47,797 bases of DNA from the UHGV virus genome UHGV-0177318; one strand, 5' to 3'. A model generated the notes under the pieces. The model was not told the DNA's origin, searched no databases, and saw nothing but the letters and a program-made list of their open reading frames with translations. Positions 1,389-46,031 of this stretch are shown here, piece by piece (position 1 is the first letter of the stretch; each line of letters starts with the position of its first letter). The position numbers and the translations under genes are program-made. Source of the stretch: a virus.

Positions 1389-2974
1389 AAATTCCTTCTT
1401 TAGTTGGCCCCGACGGGAAAACCTCCCTGAGGGAATATGCAGGCTATCACGCCGGTGGCGGCGGATTCGGTGGGCAGCTAAATGCCTGGAATCCCCAGAG
1501 TGAAAGTGCCGACGCCGCACTTCTGCCGAACTTCGCCCGGGGGAATGCCCGTGCTGATGATCTGGTCCGTAACAATGGTTATGCGGCAAACGCCGTTCAG
1601 CTTCACCAGGATCACATCGTCGGGTCTTTTTTCAGACTGAGTTACTGCCCGAGCTGGCGTTATCTCGGCATTAAAGAAGAGGAAAGCCGAGCATTTGCCA
1701 GGGAGGTGGAGGCCGCCTGGTATGAATATGCGGAGGATGACTTTTGCGGGATTGATGCCGAGCGCAAGCGTACCTTTACGATGATGATCCGTGAAGGCGT
1801 TGCGACGCACGCATTTAACGGTGAACTGTGCGTCCAGCCCACCTGGGACAGTGATTCATCGCGACTTTTTCGCACGCAATTTAAAATGGTTAGTCCAAAA
1901 CGCGTGAGTAATCCCGGTAATACAGGTGACACGCGTAACTGTCGCGCGGGTGTCAAAATCAGTGATAGCGGCGCAGCGCTGGGGTACTACGTCAGTGAAG
2001 ACAGCTATCCTGGCTGGATGTCGCAAAAATGGACCTATATACCACGGGAACTGCCGGGCGGAAGGCCATCATTCATCCATATTTTTGAACCGCTTGAGGA
2101 TGGACAGACCCGCGGCGCAAACGTGTTTTACAGCGTGATGGAGCAGATGAAAATGCTCGACACCCTGCAAAATACTCAGCTCCAGAGCGCAATTGTAAAA
2201 GCTATGTATGCGGCGACAATCGAGAGCGAGCTTGATACCGATACGGCGATGGACTTTATCCTCGGCGCGGATAGTAAGCAGCAAAATAAGCTGACGGGCT
2301 GGCTTGGCGAAATGGCAGCATACTACGCTGCAGCGCCGGTTCGCCTCGGTGGCGCGAAAGTGCCTCATCTTATGCCGGGCGATTCCCTGAACCTTCAGTC
2401 AGCACAGGATACCGATAACGGTTATTCCACCTTTGAACAATCACTCCTGCGCTATATTTCGGCCGGTCTTGGTGTTTCGTATGAGCAGCTTTCCCGTAAC
2501 TACTCTCAGATGAGCTATTCGACGGCGCGCGCCAGCGCCAATGAATCCTGGGCGTTCTTTATGGGGCGTCGCAAGTTTGTCGCGGCCCGGCAAGCCTGCC
2601 AGATGTTCGTCTGCTGGCTCGAAGAGGCGATTGCGCGCCGGGTTGTCACGCTCCCGTCCAAAGCCAGGTTTAGCTTCCAGGAGGCGAGAACTGCCTGGGG
2701 TAACGCCAACTGGATTGGCTCGGGGCGCATGGCTATTGATGGGCTGAAGGAGGTGCAGGAGGCCGTGATGCTGATTGAGGCTGGTCTCAGCACATATGAG
2801 AAGGAGTGTGCCAAACGCGGAGATGACTATCAGGAGATATTTTCTCAGCAGGTACGTGAAACTATGGAGCGCCGGAGCGCGGGACTTAAACCTCCGGCAT
2901 GGGCGGCAGCTGCATTTGAATCTGGGCTGAAAAAATCAAATGAGGAGGTAAAAGATGACGCCAGAGCTGCGTAA
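1385..2974 (+). CDS. B: Portal protein (lambda gpB-like)
   Basis: 529 aa (lambda gpB 533 aa). Position after W, 4-nt overlap with W, and portal-family length. Confidence 0.9.
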
Positions 2975-21637: not shown

Positions 21638-21657
21638 TACTGTATATAAAAACAGTG
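21638..21657 (+). promoter_or_regulatory. LexA (SOS) box upstream of umuDC
   Basis: TACTGTATATAAAAACAGTG. It has the CTGT-N8-ACAG core and differs by about one base from the E. coli umuDC box as I recall it. It lies 16 nt upstream of the umuD ATG. Confidence 0.85.
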
Positions 21658-21672
21658 TTTGAGGTATGCAAC

Positions 21673-22092
21673 ATGGAATTTATCAGGCCTGCAGAACTGC
21701 GAGAAATTATAGCTCTCCCGCTTTTCAGTGACTTAGTGCAGTGTGGTTTCCCAAGCCCAGCGGCTGATTACGTTGAACAGCGCATCGATCTCAATGAGTT
21801 ACTTGTTGCTCACCCGAGCTCAACGTATTTCGTCAAAGCCGCGGGCGATTCTATGATCGAAGCCGGGATCAGCGACGGTGATCTGCTGGTAGTGGACAGC
21901 TCCAGGACTGCTGAGCATGGTGACATTGTCATCGCTGCGGTGGAAGGGGAGTTCACTGTTAAACGCCTGCAGCTGCGCCCGAACGTGCAACTAAACCCTA
22001 TGAACAGCGCCTACAGTCCGATAGTTATTGGCTGCGAAGATACGCTGGACGTTTTCGGCGTCGTGACTTTCATCGTTAAATCGGCGAGCTGA
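21673..22092 (+). CDS. umuD: UmuD, translesion polymerase V accessory subunit (S24 self-cleaving)
   Basis: 139 aa from [44 protein letters not shown]...GDSM...VKRL, nearly colinear with E. coli UmuD (139 aa). Confidence 0.95.
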
Positions 22093-22094
22093 AC

Positions 22095-23363
22095 ATGTTC
22101 GCGCTCTGTGATGTGAATTCGTTCTACGCATCATGCGAGACGGTGTTTCGGCCTGATTTGAGGGGGCGCCCGGTTGTCGTTCTCTCGAATAATGATGGCT
22201 GCGTAATTGCGCGCAGCGCCGAGGCCAAAGCCGCCGGAATTACCATGGGTGAGCCTTTCTTCAAGCAAAAGGAGCTTTTCCGGCGCGCTGGCGTTGTTTG
22301 CTTCAGCAGCAATTACGAGCTGTACGCTGATATGTCGAACCGGGTAATGACGACGCTGGAAGAAATGAGCCCTCGCGTCGAAATATATAGCATCGATGAA
22401 GCTTTTTGCGACCTTACTGGTGTTCGAAACTGCCGGGACCTGACAGAGTTTGGCAAAGAGATCCGCGCGACGGTTCTGAAGCGTACGCACCTGACTGTCG
22501 GGATTGGCATCGCGAAAAGTAAGACCCTTGCAAAGCTGGCAAATCACGCCGCCAAAAAATGGCAGCGTCAGACGGGCGGAGTTGTTGATTTGTCCAATAT
22601 CGATCGCCAGCGTCGGTTGTTGGCTATTGTGCCTGTGGAGGACGTATGGGGCGTCGGCAGGCGCATCAGTAAGAAGCTGAACGCCATGGGCATCAAAACG
22701 GCTCTGGACCTCTCAGAACAAAGCACATGGATTATCCGTAAACACTTTAACGTGGTACTCGAGCGAACGGTCCGGGAGTTGCGCGGCGAGCCTTGTCTTG
22801 ATCTGGAGGAGTTTGCACCAGCTAAGCAGGAAATCGTCTGCAGTCGGTCATTCGGTGAACGCGTTACCGAATACGAACAGATGCGGCAGGCTATTTGCAG
22901 CTATGCGGCGCGTGGTGCTGAAAAGCTTCGCGGCGAACATCAGTATTGCCGTTTTATCTCTGCGTTCGTGAAGACGTCACCTTTTGCCCTGAACGAGCCG
23001 TATTACGGCAACAGCGCGTCAGTGAAGCTTCTCACCCCCACTCAGGATTCCCGCGACATCATCAACGCCGCGGTAAAGTGCCTGGACAAAATCTGGAAGG
23101 ATGGGCACCGCTATCAAAAGGCTGGAATTATGCTGGGAGATTTTTTCAGTCAAGGGGTGGCACAGCTGAACCTTTTCGATGAGCACGCGCCGCGCGCTGG
23201 AAGCGATAAGTTGATGGATGTGCTCGATCACTTGAACGCGAAAGAAGGGAAAGGAACACTCTTCTTTGCCGGGCAGGGCATTCAACAGCAGTGGCAGATG
23301 AAGCGGCAGTTGCTTTCACCCCGATATACTACTCGCATATCAGATTTATTAATTGTGAAGTAA
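22095..23363 (+). CDS. umuC: UmuC, Y-family DNA polymerase V catalytic subunit
   Basis: 422 aa. [41 protein letters not shown]..., the same length and N-terminus as E. coli UmuC. Confidence 0.95.
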
Positions 23364-23394: not shown

Positions 23395-23544
23395 TTAAGC
23401 AGCTTTTTTCTCGCTGCATTTGCAATGAGGGATAACAAAAACTTTCGCCTTTTTAGGGCGGATGATTTTACCATCCTTCATTACATAGGGCGTGAAGGTT
23501 ACTTCACACGAATTCCCACATTTTGGACAATAGCCAGTTTTCAT
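23395..23544 (-). CDS. Small (49 aa) Zn-ribbon-like protein, probably LexA-regulated; absent from the ORF track
   Basis: MKTGYCPKCGNSCEVTFTPYVMKDGKIIRPKKAKVFVIPHCKCSEKKAA (CxxC...CxC). SD GGAG lies 8 nt upstream of the ATG, a CTGT-N8-ACAG box 26 nt upstream, and a terminator downstream. Confidence 0.55.
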   Translation of the reverse strand: MKTGYCPKCGNSCEVTFTPYVMKDGKIIRPKKAKVFVIPHCKCSEKKAA

Positions 23545-23569
23545 GTGAGATCTCCTATGTAAATGTACA

Positions 23570-23589
23570 GCCTGTAAATCTAAACAGAT
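23570..23589 (-). promoter_or_regulatory. LexA-like box upstream of the 49-aa ORF
   Basis: gcCTGTAAATCTAAACAGat. The core is perfect and the flanks are non-consensus. Confidence 0.55.
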
Positions 23590-23697: not shown

Positions 23698-23723
23698 AAG
23701 CCCTGCGTCAACAGGGCTTTTTT
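23698..23723. terminator. Terminator hairpin after the XRE/ImmA operon
   Basis: AAGCCCTG-cgtcaa-CAGGGCTT immediately after the ImmA stop, with a T6 run on the + side. Confidence 0.55.
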
Positions 23724-24205
23724 CAATAAAATTCAAAGCAAAGCTGTGCTGTTTGATAGCCCAATTTATCGAGCATCGTTTCTGCGAAAAGATCCGCCTG
23801 CCATTCAGAATCTTCATTTTGTTCCGGCATGGCATTCGCAAAGTGTAAGGCTGGCTTATGTTGTAGTAGCAAGTGCCCGAGCTCATGGAATATAACAAAT
23901 AACGCTGATCGTTCACCGCCACATGCCATTTCATAGATATGGTTTGGAACCCTGATAGTCAGTTTGTCAGGTTCACAGTGTCCAATCGTTAGACCCAGCG
24001 TTTCCTGAAACCATTCGTCATCATCCATTGGATCGAGGACAATATTCCATTGAGATAATGTTTCCAGCGCTACGTCAAATCTGCGCGGTCTACGCCGGTA
24101 TTTATACTTACTAGTAAATCCGAGTGCAAAGCAAGCATTTACAGCTATCGCTTTAATTTCCATTTCACTCAGAGGACGAACACGTGTACCGCGCATTAAA
24201 TGCAT
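23723..24205 (-). CDS. ImmA/IrrE-family zinc metallopeptidase (COG2856)
   Basis: 160 aa with HEXXH in VIFHELGHLLLQH. It lies immediately downstream of an XRE HTH gene, the canonical ImmR/ImmA-type pairing. Confidence 0.8.
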   Translation of the reverse strand: MHLMRGTRVRPLSEMEIKAIAVNACFALGFTSKYKYRRRPRRFDVALETLSQWNIVLDPMDDDEWFQETLGLTIGHCEPDKLTIRVPNHIYEMACGGERSALFVIFHELGHLLLQHKPALHFANAMPEQNEDSEWQADLFAETMLDKLGYQTAQLCFEFY

Positions 24206-25578: not shown

Positions 25579-25818
25579 TCATTCATTAGTAAGCCACATA
25601 TCAGACTCTTCAAACATATCCTCCAGCATACGGTTCAACTTTTCACGGTCACTTTTGCTGGCATCACTATTCAATCCGTTAGCCTGCATAGGTTTCACCT
25701 TCACTTCAGCATCAGGGAATATGCTATGCACTCGCCTCGTCAGCTCAGCCAAAATAATTTCTCTGGCGCCATCCAAGCCCTGGACATTTCGCTTATCGTA
25801 AACCAACTCAACAAACAT
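25579..25818 (-). CDS. dinI: DinI-family DNA-damage-inducible protein
   Basis: 79 aa. The pattern ..LAELTRRVHSIFPDAEVKVKP...EKLNRMLEDMFEESDMWLTNE parallels E. coli DinI (ELSRRIQYAFPD...ILQETWESADDWFVSE). A LexA box lies upstream. Confidence 0.85.
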   Translation of the reverse strand: MFVELVYDKRNVQGLDGAREIILAELTRRVHSIFPDAEVKVKPMQANGLNSDASKSDREKLNRMLEDMFEESDMWLTNE

Positions 25819-25857
25819 AACAGTCTCCTTAATCTCTGTGAGAGGAAGCTATATTTT

Positions 25858-25877
25858 TACTGTAAATATATACAGTG
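25858..25877 (-). promoter_or_regulatory. LexA (SOS) box upstream of dinI
   Basis: TACTGTAAATATATACAGTG, 40 nt upstream of the dinI start codon. Confidence 0.85.
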
Positions 25878-26029: not shown

Positions 26030-26075
26030 TGGTCGGCACGAGAGGATTTGAACCTCCGACCCCCGACACCCCATG
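26030..26075 (-). other. attP core: 46-nt 3' portion of tRNA-Pro(GGG) (proL-type), not a complete tRNA
   Basis: The reverse complement, CATGGGGTGTCGGGGGTCGGAGGTTCAAATCCTCTCGTGCCGACCA, matches the anticodon loop to CCA end of E. coli proL as I recall it. The sequence 5' of it diverges (no D-arm or acceptor 5' half). A tRNA-downstream terminator hairpin lies at about 25994..26016, and int is adjacent. Confidence 0.85.
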
Positions 26076-26129
26076 TCACTGCGTTAAAGCCGCTGCAACC
26101 CTTGTAAATACTGGTGCTACGGCATGTTT

Positions 26130-26149
26130 GACTGTATATGCAAACAGTG
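26130..26149. promoter_or_regulatory. LexA-like box in the attP arm between the core and int
   Basis: gACTGTATATGCAAACAGTg, with a perfect CTGT-N8-ACAG core. A TTGACT hexamer overlaps its left edge. Confidence 0.5.
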
Positions 26150-26211
26150 CATTTTTTGCAAAATCCGCACTATATACATCAATGAGTTACGGGTAGGTTT
26201 TTCCCCATACA

Positions 26212-27405
26212 TCACCCGGCTTTAAAGACAATTTCAGCATGAGGAACTTCTACCCATTCCACATGGTTCTGGGTATAAACTTTTGTCGATTTTGCATCAC
26301 TATGGGCCATCCTTGCCTGCGGATCGATACCTTGTCTTTCGAAAATATGAGCCGCCAGCGCTCTAATCTCGTGGAAAGTTGGCCTTTCTTTGATAGGTAA
26401 TTCTGCCGCTACACCTATCCGGTCCCGCAGCTCTGAAAATGCCCTGCTCAAATAATCAGGGGCCACCTGTGTTGGGTGGTTAACTTCCTTGCTTATCGGA
26501 TTGCTTCTCTTTTCCAGAAGCCGGTGAATAACATAAGGACTGGCCACATTGTCTCTGCTGTTGTCGATGATCTCTTTCAGGGCCCTGCCGATCGGAATAG
26601 CGACGTGTGAAGCCTCTTTGTGCTGCACTTTTTGCCGATGAATGTAAAGCGTTCCGAATATGCCAGCCTCCTCCTGATCGAACCATACACAGCCGCAAAC
26701 CCCTTCTTGAGGTTCCTTGATCGAGTACCGGATCCGGGAAACTTCCAGGCGCGCTTGCGTAGTTTGTATGGCAAGGTCCATTGCAGTCTTCAGCCAAGGT
26801 TCAGCAGCTGCATGTATGGCCAGGAACTGTTCCAAAGTAAGTCGCCGGCGGACCTTTTTATCGACACGCCGCATTTTTTTCCGTGTTGCAGGGTTATCCA
26901 TCATTAGCGATTCATCAACAGCATAAGAGAATAGCTTTTTCAGGAAGCTAACTTTTCGGTTCTGAACATTGGCCGACGATTCAGAATGGTAATTTCGTAT
27001 GTAGGCATTTACGTGCTCAAGCTCAATATCGCATGCGGGTATGTTATTAAAAAATTCTTTAACCCTGATGGCATCATTATTCCAATCGTCAAGTGTGCTT
27101 TTAGACGGCTGCTCATCTTTGATTGCTCTCTCCATAATGCGATCAACATGTTCAGAAAACGGGTGGGCTTCACCATTCAGCCCTCCCGATTCCCGAATTA
27201 ATGAATCTATCGATGGTGTATTTTCAGGGCGCATCCTCAGGTTATATTCTCGGGCGATGGCGATAGCCATTACTCGATCCGAACCGAGAGTTTTCTTTTT
27301 CCCAGTTATAAGCGTGAACTTATACACGCCACGATCTTTATCAAAAAAAAGATAATCAGGAAGGTGGCGGTATTCTTTTTTTCGTGGCCTTGCTGCCATG
27401 GTCAA
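26212..27405 (-). CDS. int: Tyrosine integrase
   Basis: 397 aa. C-terminal catalytic region TFHEIRALAAHIFERQG...AHSDAKSTKVYTQNH (H-x-x-R ... Y). Adjacent to attP and xis. Confidence 0.92.
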   Translation of the reverse strand: MTMAARPRKKEYRHLPDYLFFDKDRGVYKFTLITGKKKTLGSDRVMAIAIAREYNLRMRPENTPSIDSLIRESGGLNGEAHPFSEHVDRIMERAIKDEQPSKSTLDDWNNDAIRVKEFFNNIPACDIELEHVNAYIRNYHSESSANVQNRKVSFLKKLFSYAVDESLMMDNPATRKKMRRVDKKVRRRLTLEQFLAIHAAAEPWLKTAMDLAIQTTQARLEVSRIRYSIKEPQEGVCGCVWFDQEEAGIFGTLYIHRQKVQHKEASHVAIPIGRALKEIIDNSRDNVASPYVIHRLLEKRSNPISKEVNHPTQVAPDYLSRAFSELRDRIGVAAELPIKERPTFHEIRALAAHIFERQGIDPQARMAHSDAKSTKVYTQNHVEWVEVPHAEIVFKAG

Positions 27406-40699: not shown

Positions 40700-40720
40700 T
40701 TGTATGGAGCGCTGAGCATA

Positions 40721-41413
40721 ATGAATTTACAAGAACTGGAATATACGCGGATTGAACTGCGCCGTGCGCTGGCGGATTTATCAGGATCGACAAAAGGGCA
40801 GCTGCAGGCGTTCAGTGAGCATCCACCAGCAGATAAGAATAAATACCCCCGGCACCATCCTGAAATCGTCATGGAGGGTGGGGAAGGTTGTGGATCGAAG
40901 GTTGTAAAAACTCTGGCCACTCCGCTTTATGTTCTTGAGACAAGGAGCCGTCGCCGACCTTTACCGCCTATTAAGGATGCGGAGTTCGCTTGTTCAGCAT
41001 GGCGTCGTTCGGTCAATGGTCTGGGGGAGCATTTGCAGGCATGGGTGCGGTACTGCTATGGGCATGACCTTGCTTTCCGGTACCAGAGGTTAATGTGCCA
41101 GCACGTATGGGAAGAGTTCCAGCGTCAGCATAGCGGCAAAAAAATCCAGGACCGTGTCACTAAAAAACTGGTTGGGCTTGTCTGGCTGGCGGCGCAAGAA
41201 GTTGCTGCCTCGCGTAATAACGATACCTATCAGGAGTATGCTGGTGCAGCTCTGGCGCGCATGGTCAGCGTTGAGCGTTCCACCTGGCTTAGAGTGTATT
41301 CAGGCCACTGGGCGGCTTTCAAAGCGTCGTTTGCTGAAATGGACAGCCAGGCACTAAGCGAAATTTTGTCACGGTACGAAGGGTACCAAGAACTGAAAGT
41401 GGCGGAAATGTGA
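40721..41413 (+). CDS. Q: Late-gene antiterminator Q (QuuQ/phage-82-type family)
   Basis: 230 aa. It lies directly upstream of a promoter plus a short-leader terminator and the lysis genes. Size and DUF968 synteny match Qin quuQ. There is no sequence motif I can verify by eye. Confidence 0.65.
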   Translation: MNLQELEYTRIELRRALADLSGSTKGQLQAFSEHPPADKNKYPRHHPEIVMEGGEGCGSKVVKTLATPLYVLETRSRRRPLPPIKDAEFACSAWRRSVNGLGEHLQAWVRYCYGHDLAFRYQRLMCQHVWEEFQRQHSGKKIQDRVTKKLVGLVWLAAQEVAASRNNDTYQEYAGAALARMVSVERSTWLRVYSGHWAAFKASFAEMDSQALSEILSRYEGYQELKVAEM

Positions 41414-41443
41414 GATAACTTTCACTAACTCCCTCAATTGGGC

Positions 41444-41500
41444 TTGCAAAATGCAACAAAATGAGCCATATTTGAAGCTAATTTGATATTTTGTCATAAT
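41444..41500 (+). promoter_or_regulatory. Late promoter pR' region (two overlapping candidate promoters / pause element)
   Basis: TTGCAA-17-CATATT (41444..41472) and TTGAAG-17-CATAAT (41472..41500). The second -10-like hexamer could be the sigma-dependent pause signal of the first promoter. Confidence 0.55.
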
Positions 41501-41509
41501 TATATCTTA

Positions 41510-41532
41510 CCTCGCCTCGGCGGGGTTTTTTT
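41510..41532 (+). terminator. tR'-like intrinsic terminator just downstream of pR'
   Basis: CCTCGC-ctcg-GCGGGG (one G.U pair) followed by T7. Confidence 0.8.
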
Positions 41533-41611
41533 ATGCCTTTTGTATCTAAAGCTTGATGCAAAAATGAACCAGAGTTATCTGTGTGTCACACGATAAAAAA
41601 GGGGAAAAGGC

Positions 41612-41803
41612 ATGCAAAATCAACCTTATATGACAGAAGAAGCAAAGGCGGTTTTTAACGAACTCAGCGCTTCACCAGCGACAGCTGGGGAAATTGCACA
41701 GAATACGCACCTAAGCCGAGAGAAATGCCAGCTCATCCTGACGCAGCTGGTTATGGCGGGGTTATCAGATTACCAGTTTGGATGTTACAAACGCCTCCAC
41801 TGA
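41612..41803 (+). CDS. Small putative winged-helix DNA-binding protein
   Basis: 63 aa. TAGEIAQNTHLSREKCQLILTQLVMAGL looks like an HTH recognition region. SD-like GGGGAAAAGG lies upstream. Confidence 0.45.
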   Translation: MQNQPYMTEEAKAVFNELSASPATAGEIAQNTHLSREKCQLILTQLVMAGLSDYQFGCYKRLH

Positions 41804-41953
41804 AGGGGGCATTCTGCTGTGGAAATGGGCGGCTGGTGGGTGTTGTAGCACCCAACCAGCCATTAGCTCATGCTTTCAGGTCACAAGCTAACCAAGGCCC
41901 ACTGCTTTAGCGCAAAAGCATAGTGAGCCTATCAGAGTTACGCTTACGGATCT

Positions 41954-43006
41954 ATGAAAAATACTGTAAATATAAACAGTGTTGAGCTTGTCAACGCTGA
42001 CTGCCTGCAATACCTCGCAACCCTCCCAGATAACACCATCGACCTTATTGTTACGGATCCGCCTTATTTTAAGGTGAAGCCGAACGGCTGGGATAATCAG
42101 TGGAATGGTGACGCCGACTATCTTCGCTGGCTTGATATGTGTCTTGCCCAGTTCTGGCGAGTGCTTAAGCCTGCCGGCAGCCTGTATTTGTTTTCAGGTC
42201 ACCGACTTGCATCCCATATTGAGATCATGATGCGTGAACGCTTCAACGTCATGAACCACATTATCTGGGCGAAGCCATCAGGGCGCTGGAACGGGTGTAA
42301 TAAAGAAAGCCTGCGCTCTTACTTTCCCGCGACGGAACGCATCCTTTTCGCTGAGCATTATCAGGGGCCATATAAGCCGAAAAGCGACGGATTTGCTGAG
42401 AAAAGCAACGAGGTCAAACAGCACGTCATGGCTCCGTTAATCACCTACTTTCGGGAAGCACGAGCCGAACTGGGGGTCACGTCCAGGCAAATAGCTGACG
42501 CCACCGGAAAGAAAAATATGGCGTCTCACTGGTTCGGTGCCAGTCAGTGGCAACTACCGAACGAGCAGGATTACGAAAAGCTGCAGGAATTGTTCACTCA
42601 GATCGCCATTGAGAAGCACCGCGCCTCTGAACTCAAAGCACCGCATCACCAGCTGGTGGCCACATGGCATTCGTTGAACCGGAAATACCTTGATCTGCTG
42701 GAAGAGTACAAATCTCTTCGGCGGCATTTCTCTGTGACAGTAGCCGTGCCCTATACAGACGTCTGGACACATAAACCCGTCCAGTTCTATCCAGGCAAAC
42801 ACCCGTGCGAAAAGCCCGCTGATATGTTGCGGCAAATCATCAACGCCAGCAGCAGGCCCGGCGATGTGGTAGCTGATTTCTTTATGGGCTCGGGATCAAC
42901 TGTTAAAGCAGCCATTGAACTGGGCCGCCAGGCTATCGGCGTAGAACTGGAAGAGGAACGTTTCAACCAGACGGTAAGTGAGGTAAGGCAGCTGGCAGGG
43001 GAATAA
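41954..43006 (+). CDS. Beta-class N6-adenine/N4-cytosine DNA methyltransferase (DPPY, N6_N4_Mtase family)
   Basis: 350 aa. NADCLQYLATLPDNTIDLIVTDPPYF (motif IV first), then the C-terminal HPCEKP and FFMGSGST (motif I). Confidence 0.88.
   Translation: MKNTVNINSVELVNADCLQYLATLPDNTIDLIVTDPPYFKVKPNGWDNQWNGDADYLRWLDMCLAQFWRVLKPAGSLYLFSGHRLASHIEIMMRERFNVMNHIIWAKPSGRWNGCNKESLRSYFPATERILFAEHYQGPYKPKSDGFAEKSNEVKQHVMAPLITYFREARAELGVTSRQIADATGKKNMASHWFGASQWQLPNEQDYEKLQELFTQIAIEKHRASELKAPHHQLVATWHSLNRKYLDLLEEYKSLRRHFSVTVAVPYTDVWTHKPVQFYPGKHPCEKPADMLRQIINASSRPGDVVADFFMGSGSTVKAAIELGRQAIGVELEEERFNQTVSEVRQLAGE
41962..41981 (+). promoter_or_regulatory. LexA (SOS) box overlapping codons 3-10 of the DPPY methyltransferase
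   Basis: TACTGTAAATATAAACAGTG, one base different from the dinI box at 25858. Confidence 0.75.
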
Positions 43007-43012
43007 AAGCTT

Positions 43013-43035
43013 GGGTCGCTATCGCGGCCCTTTTT
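43013..43035 (+). terminator. Intrinsic terminator after the DPPY methyltransferase
   Basis: GGGTCGC-tatc-GCGGCCC (one G.U pair) followed by T5. Confidence 0.7.
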
Positions 43036-43076: not shown

Positions 43077-43292
43077 ATGTATCGAATGGAAAAAATCACG
43101 ACGGGTATTGCATACGGCGCATCGGGAGGGGGGACCGGATACTGGTTGCTTCAGCTCCTCGATAAAGTCTCCCCATCTCAATGGGCGGCTATTGGTGTGC
43201 TCGGTAGCCTCATGTTTGGTTTGCTGACGTGGTTAACGAGTCTGTACTTCCAAATCAAAGCGGATCGCCGCAAAGCTGCGCGGGGTGAATGA
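43077..43292 (+). CDS. S: Class II holin (phage 21 S21-type pinholin) with dual-start motif
   Basis: 71 aa. [45 protein letters not shown]...[10 protein letters not shown] is nearly colinear with S21. Met1/Met4 form the dual start. Confidence 0.9.
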
Positions 43293-44496: not shown

Positions 44497-45285
44497 ATGG
44501 AAGAACGTCATCACAGCTATATCCTTAAAACTATTGAAGAAATAGGAAGGGGTGGGTTCGGTTACGTTGAAAAAATTGAACTTTTCAATGTTAACGGTCA
44601 CAAATGCGGTGACTACGCCAAAAAGATTTTGGCGCAGGATCATGGGCTTAGCAAAGAGGACTTCAAAAGAAGATTCAAACGGGAAGTGGATTATCAGGCT
44701 AGGTGTACGCACTCGAATATAGCGCCTATATATCTACACAATCTTCAGGTTGATAGTCCTTGGTTTGTTATGGATCTCGCTGAAAGTGATTTAAGTACAG
44801 ATTTAGCCTCAGGCACGCTCGATAATGCAAGCAAAATGCATATTGCAGAAATGATCCTTTCAGGGGTACGTTTCATGCATACAGAGAAAACTAATGATCC
44901 AGGACGTAAGCCAGTATATTTACACCGTGATTTAAAGCCATCTAATATTCTTCGTTTTAAAGATGGAGTTTACAAAATTTCCGATTTTGGTTTAGTAAAA
45001 AATGCAGGAAAAGAAAGACCAGAATCTGAGCTTTTAACAAGAGTCGCTACAGCCATGGGAACGCTCAAATACATGGCTCCTGAGATAACAACAGCTGGGC
45101 ATTACTCAGAGCAAACTGACATTTTTGCTCTCGGAGTAGTTATTGATGATATGGGGTTTGATAACGTTAATGGTATTAGACAGTTAATCGATAAATGCAC
45201 CGCCTGGAGAGCTGCAAGCCGATACAAATCGGTTGATGATATGATGCAGGAACTGGCTGATATAAAAATAAGGAATGGGCTATGA
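44497..45285 (+). CDS. Hanks-type (eukaryotic-like) Ser/Thr protein kinase, bare catalytic domain
   Basis: 262 aa. IGRGGFGYV (G-loop), DYAKKIL (VAIK Lys), YLHRDLKPSNIL (catalytic loop), ISDFGLVK (DFG), GTLKYMAPE (APE). Confidence 0.9.
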   Translation: MEERHHSYILKTIEEIGRGGFGYVEKIELFNVNGHKCGDYAKKILAQDHGLSKEDFKRRFKREVDYQARCTHSNIAPIYLHNLQVDSPWFVMDLAESDLSTDLASGTLDNASKMHIAEMILSGVRFMHTEKTNDPGRKPVYLHRDLKPSNILRFKDGVYKISDFGLVKNAGKERPESELLTRVATAMGTLKYMAPEITTAGHYSEQTDIFALGVVIDDMGFDNVNGIRQLIDKCTAWRAASRYKSVDDMMQELADIKIRNGL

Positions 45286-46031
45286 TTACCCTACTTTCAA
45301 GTGGTCTTTTCTCTTACGCTAAAAGTTCTTCGCGTACTAATCAGGATTCTATTCTTGCTCCACAGTGCATCGATAATGGCTATTTGATTGCTGTCGCTGA
45401 TGGCGTTGGCTCGTACTTGGGCGCAGAACACGCTTCACAAACAGCAATTAAATATTTAGCGAACCTAATCAATGCTTCTTCTATCCAAGATCTTGATAGC
45501 CTCTTCGCCACAATAAAAGAAAAGATTTCTGCGTTATCTGACGCTGATGAATCCTATTTAGAAGCTGCAACGACGTTGACGTTTGCATATGTAAACAATC
45601 AAGGTTTGTACATTGGTCATGTTGGTGATTGTCGTTTGTATATTAAAAAAGATAATAAACTCAAACAACTAACGAAAGATCATACCCAACATCAAAAACT
45701 GTTGGATCAGAAGATTTTCAATAAAAAAGAACTTAAGGATATGGGGGGGAAAAACACCCTAACAACTGCGATTTCTAAAGTTATCCCATTGGAATTTCAA
45801 CAAACGTTTATTCCTGCGTCTGAAGTTTTCGAAGACAACGAAGAGGCCACTCTCTACATTCTTTCAGATGGAGCACACCACTTCTGGGATAAGAGACCAA
45901 GATTCTCAATCACTACTTTGAGCAATCCAAACTGTTTTGCAGCTAGCTTGCATAAACGAATTATTCGTAATGGGCCTATAGATGATTTTTCTTTGGTTGT
46001 AGCCAAGTTCAAGCGCAGCAGTGTTAACTAA
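45282..46031 (+). CDS. PP2C/PPM-family Ser/Thr phosphatase
   Basis: 249 aa. IAVADGVGSYLGAEHASQ, GHVGDCRLY, YILSDGAHHF. ATGA overlap with the kinase stop. Confidence 0.85.
   Translation: MITLLSSGLFSYAKSSSRTNQDSILAPQCIDNGYLIAVADGVGSYLGAEHASQTAIKYLANLINASSIQDLDSLFATIKEKISALSDADESYLEAATTLTFAYVNNQGLYIGHVGDCRLYIKKDNKLKQLTKDHTQHQKLLDQKIFNKKELKDMGGKNTLTTAISKVIPLEFQQTFIPASEVFEDNEEATLYILSDGAHHFWDKRPRFSITTLSNPNCFAASLHKRIIRNGPIDDFSLVVAKFKRSSVN

Follow-up and report, generated by a model that had tools for sequence, protein, structure and literature searches.

The viral genome UHGV-0177318, a stretch of 47,797 nucleotides (nt) called the window below, carries in its late region a gene for an adenine DNA methyltransferase, and a LexA (SOS) box, TACTGTAAATATAAACAGTG, lies on the first codons of this gene. 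Judged by motif, score and conservation, the 20-mer is a member of the gammaproteobacterial SOS-box family. The gap before the gene appears, from patterns of sequence conservation, to hold a structured sense leader together with a cis-antisense RNA that has its own extended -10 promoter. The reading that we prefer, and hold tentatively at somewhat less than an even chance, is that the box is a LexA operator in the first codons of a toxic methylase, that it belongs to a portable moron with several locks, and that bound LexA would act as a roadblock to read-through transcription. The methylase is probably wired directly to the SOS response.

The LexA box and the gene that carries it

Architecture and full-length similarity place the enzyme in the M.EcoGII family of non-specific adenine methylases. 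The PF01555 match spans residues 29-340, and DPPY at residues 35-38 and FFMGSGS near the C-terminus give the motif order of the beta class (N-terminal DPPY, a target-recognition region in the centre, C-terminal FxGxG S-adenosylmethionine motif). Alignment with M.EcoGII over 347 amino acids (aa) yielded 76% identity and 87% positives, using a reference sequence that was machine-read from the supplement of PMC11551740 with a few reading errors. M.EcoGII/M.EcoGI have the same motif order and occupy the same prophage slot, and the identity extends over the full length. The solved structures are only of distant beta-class relatives (e.g. M.RsrI, CcrM) and are uninformative on regulation. M.EcoGII methylates adenine in any sequence context and belongs to a very large family within E. 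coli prophages; it is silent in the lysogen and is deleterious when made constitutively, an unregulated or constitutive promoter not being tolerated (PMC5778455). The original prediction had proposed that SOS-coupled expression would pre-methylate phage or host DNA at the moment of induction; since the family is non-specific, methylation at a motif is the wrong expectation.

The box begins 8 nt past the A of the ATG (41954), and its placement on codons 3-10, first noticed by inspection of the sequence, is exact. It contains a perfect CTGT-N8-ACAG match (41964..41979) with a spacer of A and T only (AAATATAA). This pattern occurs five times in the window against 0.53 expected, a number reached in none of 100 shuffles; the other four sites lie near 21640 (umuD-like gene), 25860 (DinI-family gene), 23572 (49-aa zinc-ribbon open reading frame, ORF) and 26132 (attP tRNA fragment and int). 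An approximate heterology index (HI), indicative only, was calculated from a matrix of known E. coli SOS boxes: it is 4.2 for the methyltransferase box, 2.5 for the dinI box and 1.9 for the umuD box, against a median of 5.1 and at most 9.3 among the known sites. The dinI box of the window, TACTGTAAATATATACAGTG, differs from the methyltransferase box by one base, as had been stated. The assignment to the LexA type stands as well, given the exact palindrome, an approximate HI within the reference range and conservation as a DNA element.

Conservation was examined in 240 related loci, taken from viral contigs and species-representative genomes, with protein identities as low as about 55%, and spanning Enterobacter, Klebsiella, Citrobacter, Salmonella, Escherichia, Erwinia, Hafnia, Ewingella, Rahnella, Lonsdalea, Providencia and others. 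These yielded 104 distinct 5' coding sequences in the same register, of which 102 keep CTG-N10-CAG at nucleotides 11-26. Thr4 is encoded by ACT in 103 of the 104; the codons of the catalytic, invariant Thr34 are divided among ACG (45), ACC (43), ACT (9) and ACA (7). Codon 8 specifies N, S, P, H or T, with entropies of 0.97, 0.81 and 0.08 bits at its three positions, and its third base is C in all sequences but one (103/104). Ser9 is written AGT or AGC in 103/104 and never TCN. Across codons 11-60, third-position entropy averages 1.22 bits. The frozen synonymous sites at the contact triplets therefore indicate selection on the nucleotides that LexA contacts and not on the peptide. The possibility, raised with the original prediction, that the amino-acid sequence alone accounts for the conservation of the 20-mer is thus not borne out. 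Altogether, 33 different 20-mers occur among the homologues, and 31 of them keep an HI of 9 or less.

Two further observations concern the nature of the constraint. Across 44 diverse sequences the CTG and CAG triplets show no compensatory changes, while nearby RNA helices covary freely, which favours protein-DNA recognition over an RNA stem. The box of Gilliamella (Orbales, 56% identity), CTGTAAAAATGACCAG, contains the ATG and is displaced by 17 nt from the enterobacterial layout; what the box follows is therefore the DNA of the gene start, and neither the peptide nor a constant site in the mRNA. When metagenomes were scanned with the Gilliamella protein in order to enlarge that lineage, there were no matches. 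Loci whose first 60 residues, read off the translations, equal those printed for M.EcoGII (e.g. L002) carry the box TAATACTGTAAAAATATCCAGTTG in the same place, and the gene type of the published enzyme therefore has the box itself. From these data we propose that the box functions as a LexA operator and would be occupied by LexA.

Other states of the gene start were also observed, in lineages without a full box whose gene is intact. Xenorhabdus has degenerate copies of the box. The Serratia/Chania type (L050, L051, L060, L065, L078) lacks a 24-nt segment, ATGAAAAATACTGTAAAAATAT, relative to 41948..41975 of the window; its start is an ATG formed within the 3' strand of the leader helix P2 described below (cgcttATGATCTCCAGT), and the right half-site of the box alone remains. 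This state is either ancestral or a clean deletion of the box.

Leader, predicted antisense RNA and locus

About 130 nt of the 150-nt gap before the ATG are conserved to the same degree as the gene. This leader was analysed in the 44 diverse sequences (alignment A1), and pairing was scored separately for each strand. The lower stem of helix P1 is paired in 99.2% as plus-strand RNA and in 83.7% as minus-strand RNA; the corresponding values for the upper stem are 91.9% and 83.5%, with changes on both sides in 8 pairs. The hairpin noticed earlier at 41831..41861, with 12 base pairs (bp) and one bulge, is real and forms the upper part of this longer conserved helix. The long-range helix P2 is paired in 92.2% as plus-strand RNA against 83.3% as minus-strand RNA, with changes on both sides in 3 pairs. 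It pairs 11 nt ending 2 nt before the AUG, and the fold has a z-score of -4.8. Most homologues have no Shine-Dalgarno sequence at the start (cttactgatctATG); the relatives that lack both leader and box have ordinary Shine-Dalgarno sites, e.g. aaggagacaagaATG and gtaggagcacgggatATG. In this structural model the sense leader appears to bury, through P2, a start region devoid of a Shine-Dalgarno sequence. A leader peptide beginning ATGGGC was rejected, as homologues do not share its reading frame. Rfam, scanned at E <= 1, gave no match above threshold, the sub-threshold ones being to P26 (the best, at 20 bits and E = 0.29, below the gathering score) and GcvB, and ARAGORN found no tRNA.

A different set of pairs is kept on the opposite strand. 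H2 (41862..41893) is paired in 99.0% on the minus strand against 76.7% on the plus strand, and its C.A and A.C mismatches become G.U and U.G when it is read as minus strand; on the sense strand it is incompatible with P2. We dropped a model in which the sense strand switches between the exclusive folds H2 and P2, because H2 proved in the strand test to pair on the minus strand, and replaced it with a predicted antisense RNA. In this model a 5' hairpin is followed by a three-way junction, made up of a closing stem (GUGGGC/GCCCAU), H2' (41862..41893) and P1', and then by 3-4 U. The closing stem is 98.5% paired, and its alternation between G.U and A-U is possible only on the minus strand; over the minus-strand model as a whole, 95.2% is paired and 11 pairs have changes on both sides. 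The 3' end, consisting of the closing stem and 3-4 U, is not a canonical terminator. At the candidate promoter, the invariant bases outside helices fall at -15, -14, -12 and -11, and the freely varying base coincides with the "n" of TGnTAnnCT. The ends and the promoter of the antisense RNA are model predictions, and the sign of its effect can only be proposed. The coordinates of all features are given in the table.

Features of the methyltransferase locus in the window (coordinates in nt; strand as + or -)
Feature	Position	Strand	Description or basis
Q antiterminator	40700..41413	.	PF06323; upstream of methyltransferase
pR'-like late promoter (TTGAAG-17-CATAAT with TG), then tR'-like intrinsic terminator (41509..41533)	41472..41533	+	Consensus scan; position-weight promoter score 11.7
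63-aa ORF	41612..41803	+	Weak winged-helix matches; outside conserved module; upstream gene varies by locus
Terminator-like GC hairpin, GCCTCC/GGGGGC (41793..41810)	41793..41822	+	Overlaps stop of 63-aa ORF; read by eye, not called by terminator scan
Predicted antisense RNA, about 97 nt, ends inferred	41822..41920	-	Strand-specific pairing; RNAalifold on reverse-complement alignment (A2)
Helix P1: lower stem AUGGGC/GCUCAU and upper stem (41831..41861)	41825..41871	+	Pairing across 44 sequences
Long-range helix P2: GGUCACAAGC (41879..41888) with GCUUACGGAUC (41942..41952)	41879..41952	+	Encloses H3 (41896..41929)
Candidate extended -10 promoter of antisense RNA, TGATAGGCT (plus strand AGCCTATCA)	41926..41934	-	TGnTAnnCT in 41/44 leaders
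Methyltransferase ORF	41954..43006	+	350 aa; M.EcoGII-family beta-class N6-adenine DNA methyltransferase; PF01555 N6_N4_Mtase, E = 2e-43
LexA (SOS) box TACTGTAAATATAAACAGTG	41962..41981	.	On codons 3-10 (N T V N I N S V) of methyltransferase
Intrinsic terminator closing the moron	43013..43035	+	Consensus scan; precedes holin
P21-type holin	43077..43292	.	Downstream of methyltransferase; lysozyme also downstream

The location of the gene in the Q-to-holin gap, and the terminator of its own, had both been reported from inspection and were confirmed by the domain assignments and by the terminator scan. The terminator-like hairpin upstream of the leader has a poor T run in the window and a long one in most homologues, and it marks the upstream border of the conserved module. 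DNA 5' of the leader varies by locus, usually ending in a terminator hairpin and a T run, and because the DNA farther upstream differs in this way, leader, gene and terminator can be regarded as a mobile unit. The Q-to-lysis slot is retained in distant genera, behind three different Q families (PF06323, PF03589 and DUF1133). We propose that the module is a portable moron of about 1.3 kb without an evident sense promoter of its own, located behind two terminators in a Q-dependent late operon.

Relatives of the region 41814..42150 are present in 2,637 of 5,426 complete E. coli genomes, and the E. coli prophages with this gene family include those of O157:H7 and O104:H4. In two E. coli loci, L002 and L003 (O157:H7 included), tRNA-Ile and tRNA-Arg genes follow the methyltransferase module at about 2737..2969 of the locus, the same gene order as is found ahead of stx in Stx phages; the immediate upstream neighbour of the toxin slot is therefore the LexA-boxed methylase. 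Beyond the lysis cassette of the window there is a gene pair for a eukaryotic-type Ser/Thr protein kinase (PF00069) and a PP2C phosphatase (44497..46031), and in a Providencia prophage (L059, 3686..4435) a kinase of the same family directly follows the methyltransferase. The short-transcript region between pR' and tR' (41384..41534) gave a GcvB-like sub-threshold match (18 bits, E = 0.3), which is probably due to chance. GcvB-interacting prophage RNAs are known from this part of lambdoid phages.

Possible modes of control

A position-weight promoter scan of 109 distinct sequences detected no site on the box that approaches pR' (11.7) or the dinI promoter (12.9), and consensus and position-weight scans found no conserved sense promoter upstream of the gene. 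Any sense transcript must therefore cross the box. Among the promoter-like sites, the antisense extended -10 is the best conserved (mean score 6.0); it lies 30 nt from the edge of the box. In enterobacteria the box lies at about -43..-62 of the predicted antisense start, outside the core antisense promoter. In Gilliamella the counterpart of that promoter by position, TGGTCA-17-TAGAAT, has the box over -21..-36, and thus over its -35, and the box also covers the ATG. A minus-strand TCAACA-[box]-TATTTT with the layout of the dinI promoter (mean score 5.0) is found in about 80% of the enterobacterial variants. It loses A(-11) in all CACTGT variants (Providencia, Hafnia), where the box is still kept. 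The third-best conserved site is an in-box plus-strand TGtAAAnAT, with a mean score of 4.8.

Several candidate promoters were rejected. The original prediction had named TTACGC-18-TACTGT and had noted that its transcript would start after the only in-frame ATG; the second statement holds, and the -35 is not conserved, homologues reading ACCCGC, TCCTGC or AAAGGT, so the candidate was discarded on both counts. At the 5' edge of the conserved block, a promoter of the TGTGAAAAT type has G at the equivalent of A(-11) in most homologues, and the conserved GAAAT there is better read as RNA, either the base of sense P1 or the U run of the antisense RNA. Just 5' of the ATG, TATCAG and TACGCT were set aside because they have no T(-7) or are themselves not conserved. 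A perfect minus-strand TTGACA (41994..41989) is followed by a usable -10 at 14 nt or by a poor TATTTA at 16 nt, and it is specific to the window, with TTGATT or TTGAAC in other homologues.

Under the reading that we prefer, the sense transcript would come only from pR', either by rare read-through in the lysogen or, after induction, from a dense train of Q-modified polymerase. In an undamaged cell, LexA on codons 3-10 would halt the occasional read-through polymerase at the start codon as an intragenic roadblock. Any remaining mRNA would be handled by the leader, whose helix P2 may hide the start, and by the antisense RNA from the extended -10 inside the leader. DNA damage would remove LexA, and together with Q antitermination this would give full expression, so that the arrangement would behave as an AND gate of SOS on and late transcription on. 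Use of a host-universal LexA instead of a phage-specific repressor would leave the moron movable between phages of different immunity. Redundant locks could be selected because M.EcoGII is deleterious when constitutive and silent in the lysogen (PMC5778455). Such a multi-lock design is favoured here because of the reported toxicity, the constant Q-to-lysis slot behind three Q families and the host-universal repressor. The LexA boxes that the phage has at its umuDC-like and dinI morons also count in its favour. The roadblock put forward in the original prediction is viable, and the effect of LexA on a read-through polymerase is proposed by analogy with other repressors.

Several points weigh against this reading. 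LexA normally acts by promoter occlusion, and we know of no characterised LexA roadblock. Q-modified polymerase may ignore a LexA block, and because LexA is gone in SOS-driven induction, the benefit of a roadblock rests wholly on the silencing of leaks. The box has been lost with gene and leader intact in L202, L204 and L067, and since several lineages have lost it in this way, it is dispensable. In addition, the strict association of box and leader and the layout on the Gilliamella -35 fit control of the antisense promoter at least as well.

That alternative, in which LexA controls the antisense RNA rather than the sense transcript, is the main rival and is doubtful in our estimate. LexA would sit in the UP-element zone in enterobacteria or on the -35 in Gilliamella, and antisense RNA made upon SOS induction would free the start buried in P2 and so activate translation of the late mRNA; because the mRNA is intrinsically closed, pairing of the antisense RNA with the 5' strand of P2 could open the start. 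RNase III processing is possible, and so is the opposite sign, an SOS-induced delay. The strand-specific pairing of H2 and of the closing stem, the TGnTAnnCT motif, the Gilliamella layout and the ordinary Shine-Dalgarno sites of homologues without leader and box are all consistent with such control, as is the distribution among unique sequences, 126 having both box and leader, 46 neither and only 8 a mixed state, although this co-occurrence may reflect common descent. The weak second minus-strand promoter mirrors that of dinI, but it loses A(-11) in the CACTGT variants, which keep the box. In enterobacteria, moreover, the box is clear of the core antisense promoter, and LexA is not known to repress from -43..-62. 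One would expect a toxic gene's negative regulator to be active in the lysogen, so the less common activating sign is needed, and both RNA ends and promoter are predictions. The fuller scheme of a LexA-gated cis-antisense activator, with methylase made only when Q antitermination, LexA cleavage and antisense pairing coincide, we consider unlikely; if true, it would be a new kind of SOS-controlled riboregulatory module and a self-contained safety cassette.

Two other explanations concern the 20-mer itself. The palindrome might work as RNA, as a small hairpin or an A-rich standby site after an AUG without a Shine-Dalgarno sequence, its likeness to a LexA site being incidental and any LexA binding without consequence. 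It folds as an mRNA hairpin of 5-8 bp, it belongs to a part of the mRNA that is clearly under RNA-level control, and codons 2-3 (AAA AAT) are typical of efficient starts. This explanation is nevertheless very unlikely: the four pairs on the CUG/CAG side are invariant and without covariation in sequences whose neighbouring helices covary, and the fifth pair is broken in all CCAG variants (26/104). What is conserved coincides exactly with the positions of the LexA consensus, its 10-nt spacing and A/T-only spacer included, the Gilliamella box is placed differently relative to AUG and P2, and a match by chance to a 16-of-20 consensus, identical with that of the dinI box of the phage, is improbable. 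We give hardly any credence to an SOS-derepressed sense promoter inside the gene, either TTACGC-18-TACTGT or the in-box TGtAAAnAT, with an RNA start at about 41980. In its favour, the in-box motif keeps the equivalents of A(-11) and T(-7) invariant and ranks third in conservation, and many real SOS promoters have their -10 within the box, the umuD-like promoter of the window scoring only 5.8. These conserved bases are explained equally well by the LexA consensus and coding constraints, a T at box position 6 giving a stop codon, and the TTACGC element is not conserved. Because the start lies past the only in-frame start codon, such an RNA cannot make the enzyme; no in-frame ATG, GTG or TTG occurs between box and DPPY, and the motif in Gilliamella would likewise start after the ATG.

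Other SOS boxes, known systems and implications

The window has further SOS-box loci. Between the tail genes and attP (21638..23363) there is a pair of umuD-like (Peptidase_S24, PF00717) and umuC-like (IMS family, PF00817) genes with a near-consensus LexA box, TACTGTATATAAAAACAGTG, just 5' of the umuD-like gene, constituting an error-prone polymerase moron. The promoter of the DinI-family gene (25579..25877, minus strand) consists of TTGACA and TAAAAT with the LexA box as 16-nt spacer. A good LexA-like box, GACTGTATATGCAAACAGTG (26130..26149), is located a short way past the 3' end of the integrase gene (26212..27405, minus strand), with no gene start near; the region 26030..26150 holds a 3' tRNA fragment, presumably the attP core since ARAGORN finds no complete tRNA. 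A 49-aa zinc-ribbon ORF of the CxxC...CxC type (23395..23589, minus strand) lies behind a weak LexA-like box, GCCTGTAAATCTAAACAGAT, with an approximate HI of 12.5, and adjoins a Peptidase_M78 (IrrE-like) gene (23723..24205); this locus could be an SOS-controlled module of the antirepressor type.

Compared with canonical gammaproteobacterial SOS boxes (dinI, umuDC, recN), the methyltransferase box has the same CTGT-N8-ACAG motif, A/T spacer and a predicted affinity in the functional range. The canonical boxes overlap the -35 and -10 in intergenic DNA, whereas this one is intragenic, about 135 nt into a structured transcription unit, and in enterobacteria no conserved core promoter lies on it. 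Intragenic operator roadblocks are known for PurR in purB and for CcpA and CodY, the latter two aided by Mfd. The idea is the same, a repressor site in a transcribed or coding region that stops the elongating polymerase; however, those systems act on transcripts from the gene's own promoter, while here LexA would be the repressor and the transcripts would come from a phage late promoter by read-through of terminators.

As a system, the module is most like the SOS-linked type I toxin-antitoxin loci tisB/istR-1/istR-2, symE/symR and dinQ/agrB, judging by analogy of organisation. Common to both are a harmful product, a LexA box, an antisense RNA in cis or near-cis and a leader that hides the ribosome-binding region. 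In the toxin-antitoxin loci the LexA box lies on the promoter of a small-peptide toxin; here the product is a 350-aa enzyme, the setting a phage late operon and the putative operator inside the coding sequence (CDS). Antisense RNAs of phages and of restriction-modification systems are represented by lambda OOP, P22 sar and the EcoRI antisense RNAs, which, like AgvB and AsxR, are small RNAs in or beside moron or regulatory genes. AgvB and AsxR lie 3' of a moron CDS and act in trans (PMC4104026), unlike the RNA predicted here, which is antisense to a 5' leader and has no Rfam match; identity with these anti-sRNAs (small RNAs) was rejected on grounds of position.

The M.EcoGII paper ascribes the silence of the gene only to general prophage repression, with LexA, SOS, leader and antisense RNA unmentioned (PMC5778455). 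Among the papers of the literature library searched, none has both M.EcoGII and LexA, and there was nothing relevant on LexA and prophage methyltransferases, in agreement with the earlier remark that an SOS box on a methyltransferase start had not been described. The putative link between LexA and the methylase, with its attached RNA module, is widespread and under strong selection, and it is apparently unreported.

M.EcoGII is a widely used biotechnology enzyme, and its family is found in about half of the complete E. coli genomes. The silencing of this harmful gene has so far been guessed at; the LexA site and the sense/antisense RNA module offer a concrete, testable circuit. If LexA controls the gene, DNA-damaging antibiotics would lead to genome-wide adenine methylation in lysogens, even in those with defective prophages if the leak suffices. 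The consequences would extend to restriction evasion by progeny phage, to mismatch repair and gene expression in the SOS state, and to the way methylomes are interpreted. The known modes of LexA action would also grow by one, an operator within a gene or one acting on an antisense promoter, and phages would gain a new structured RNA family.

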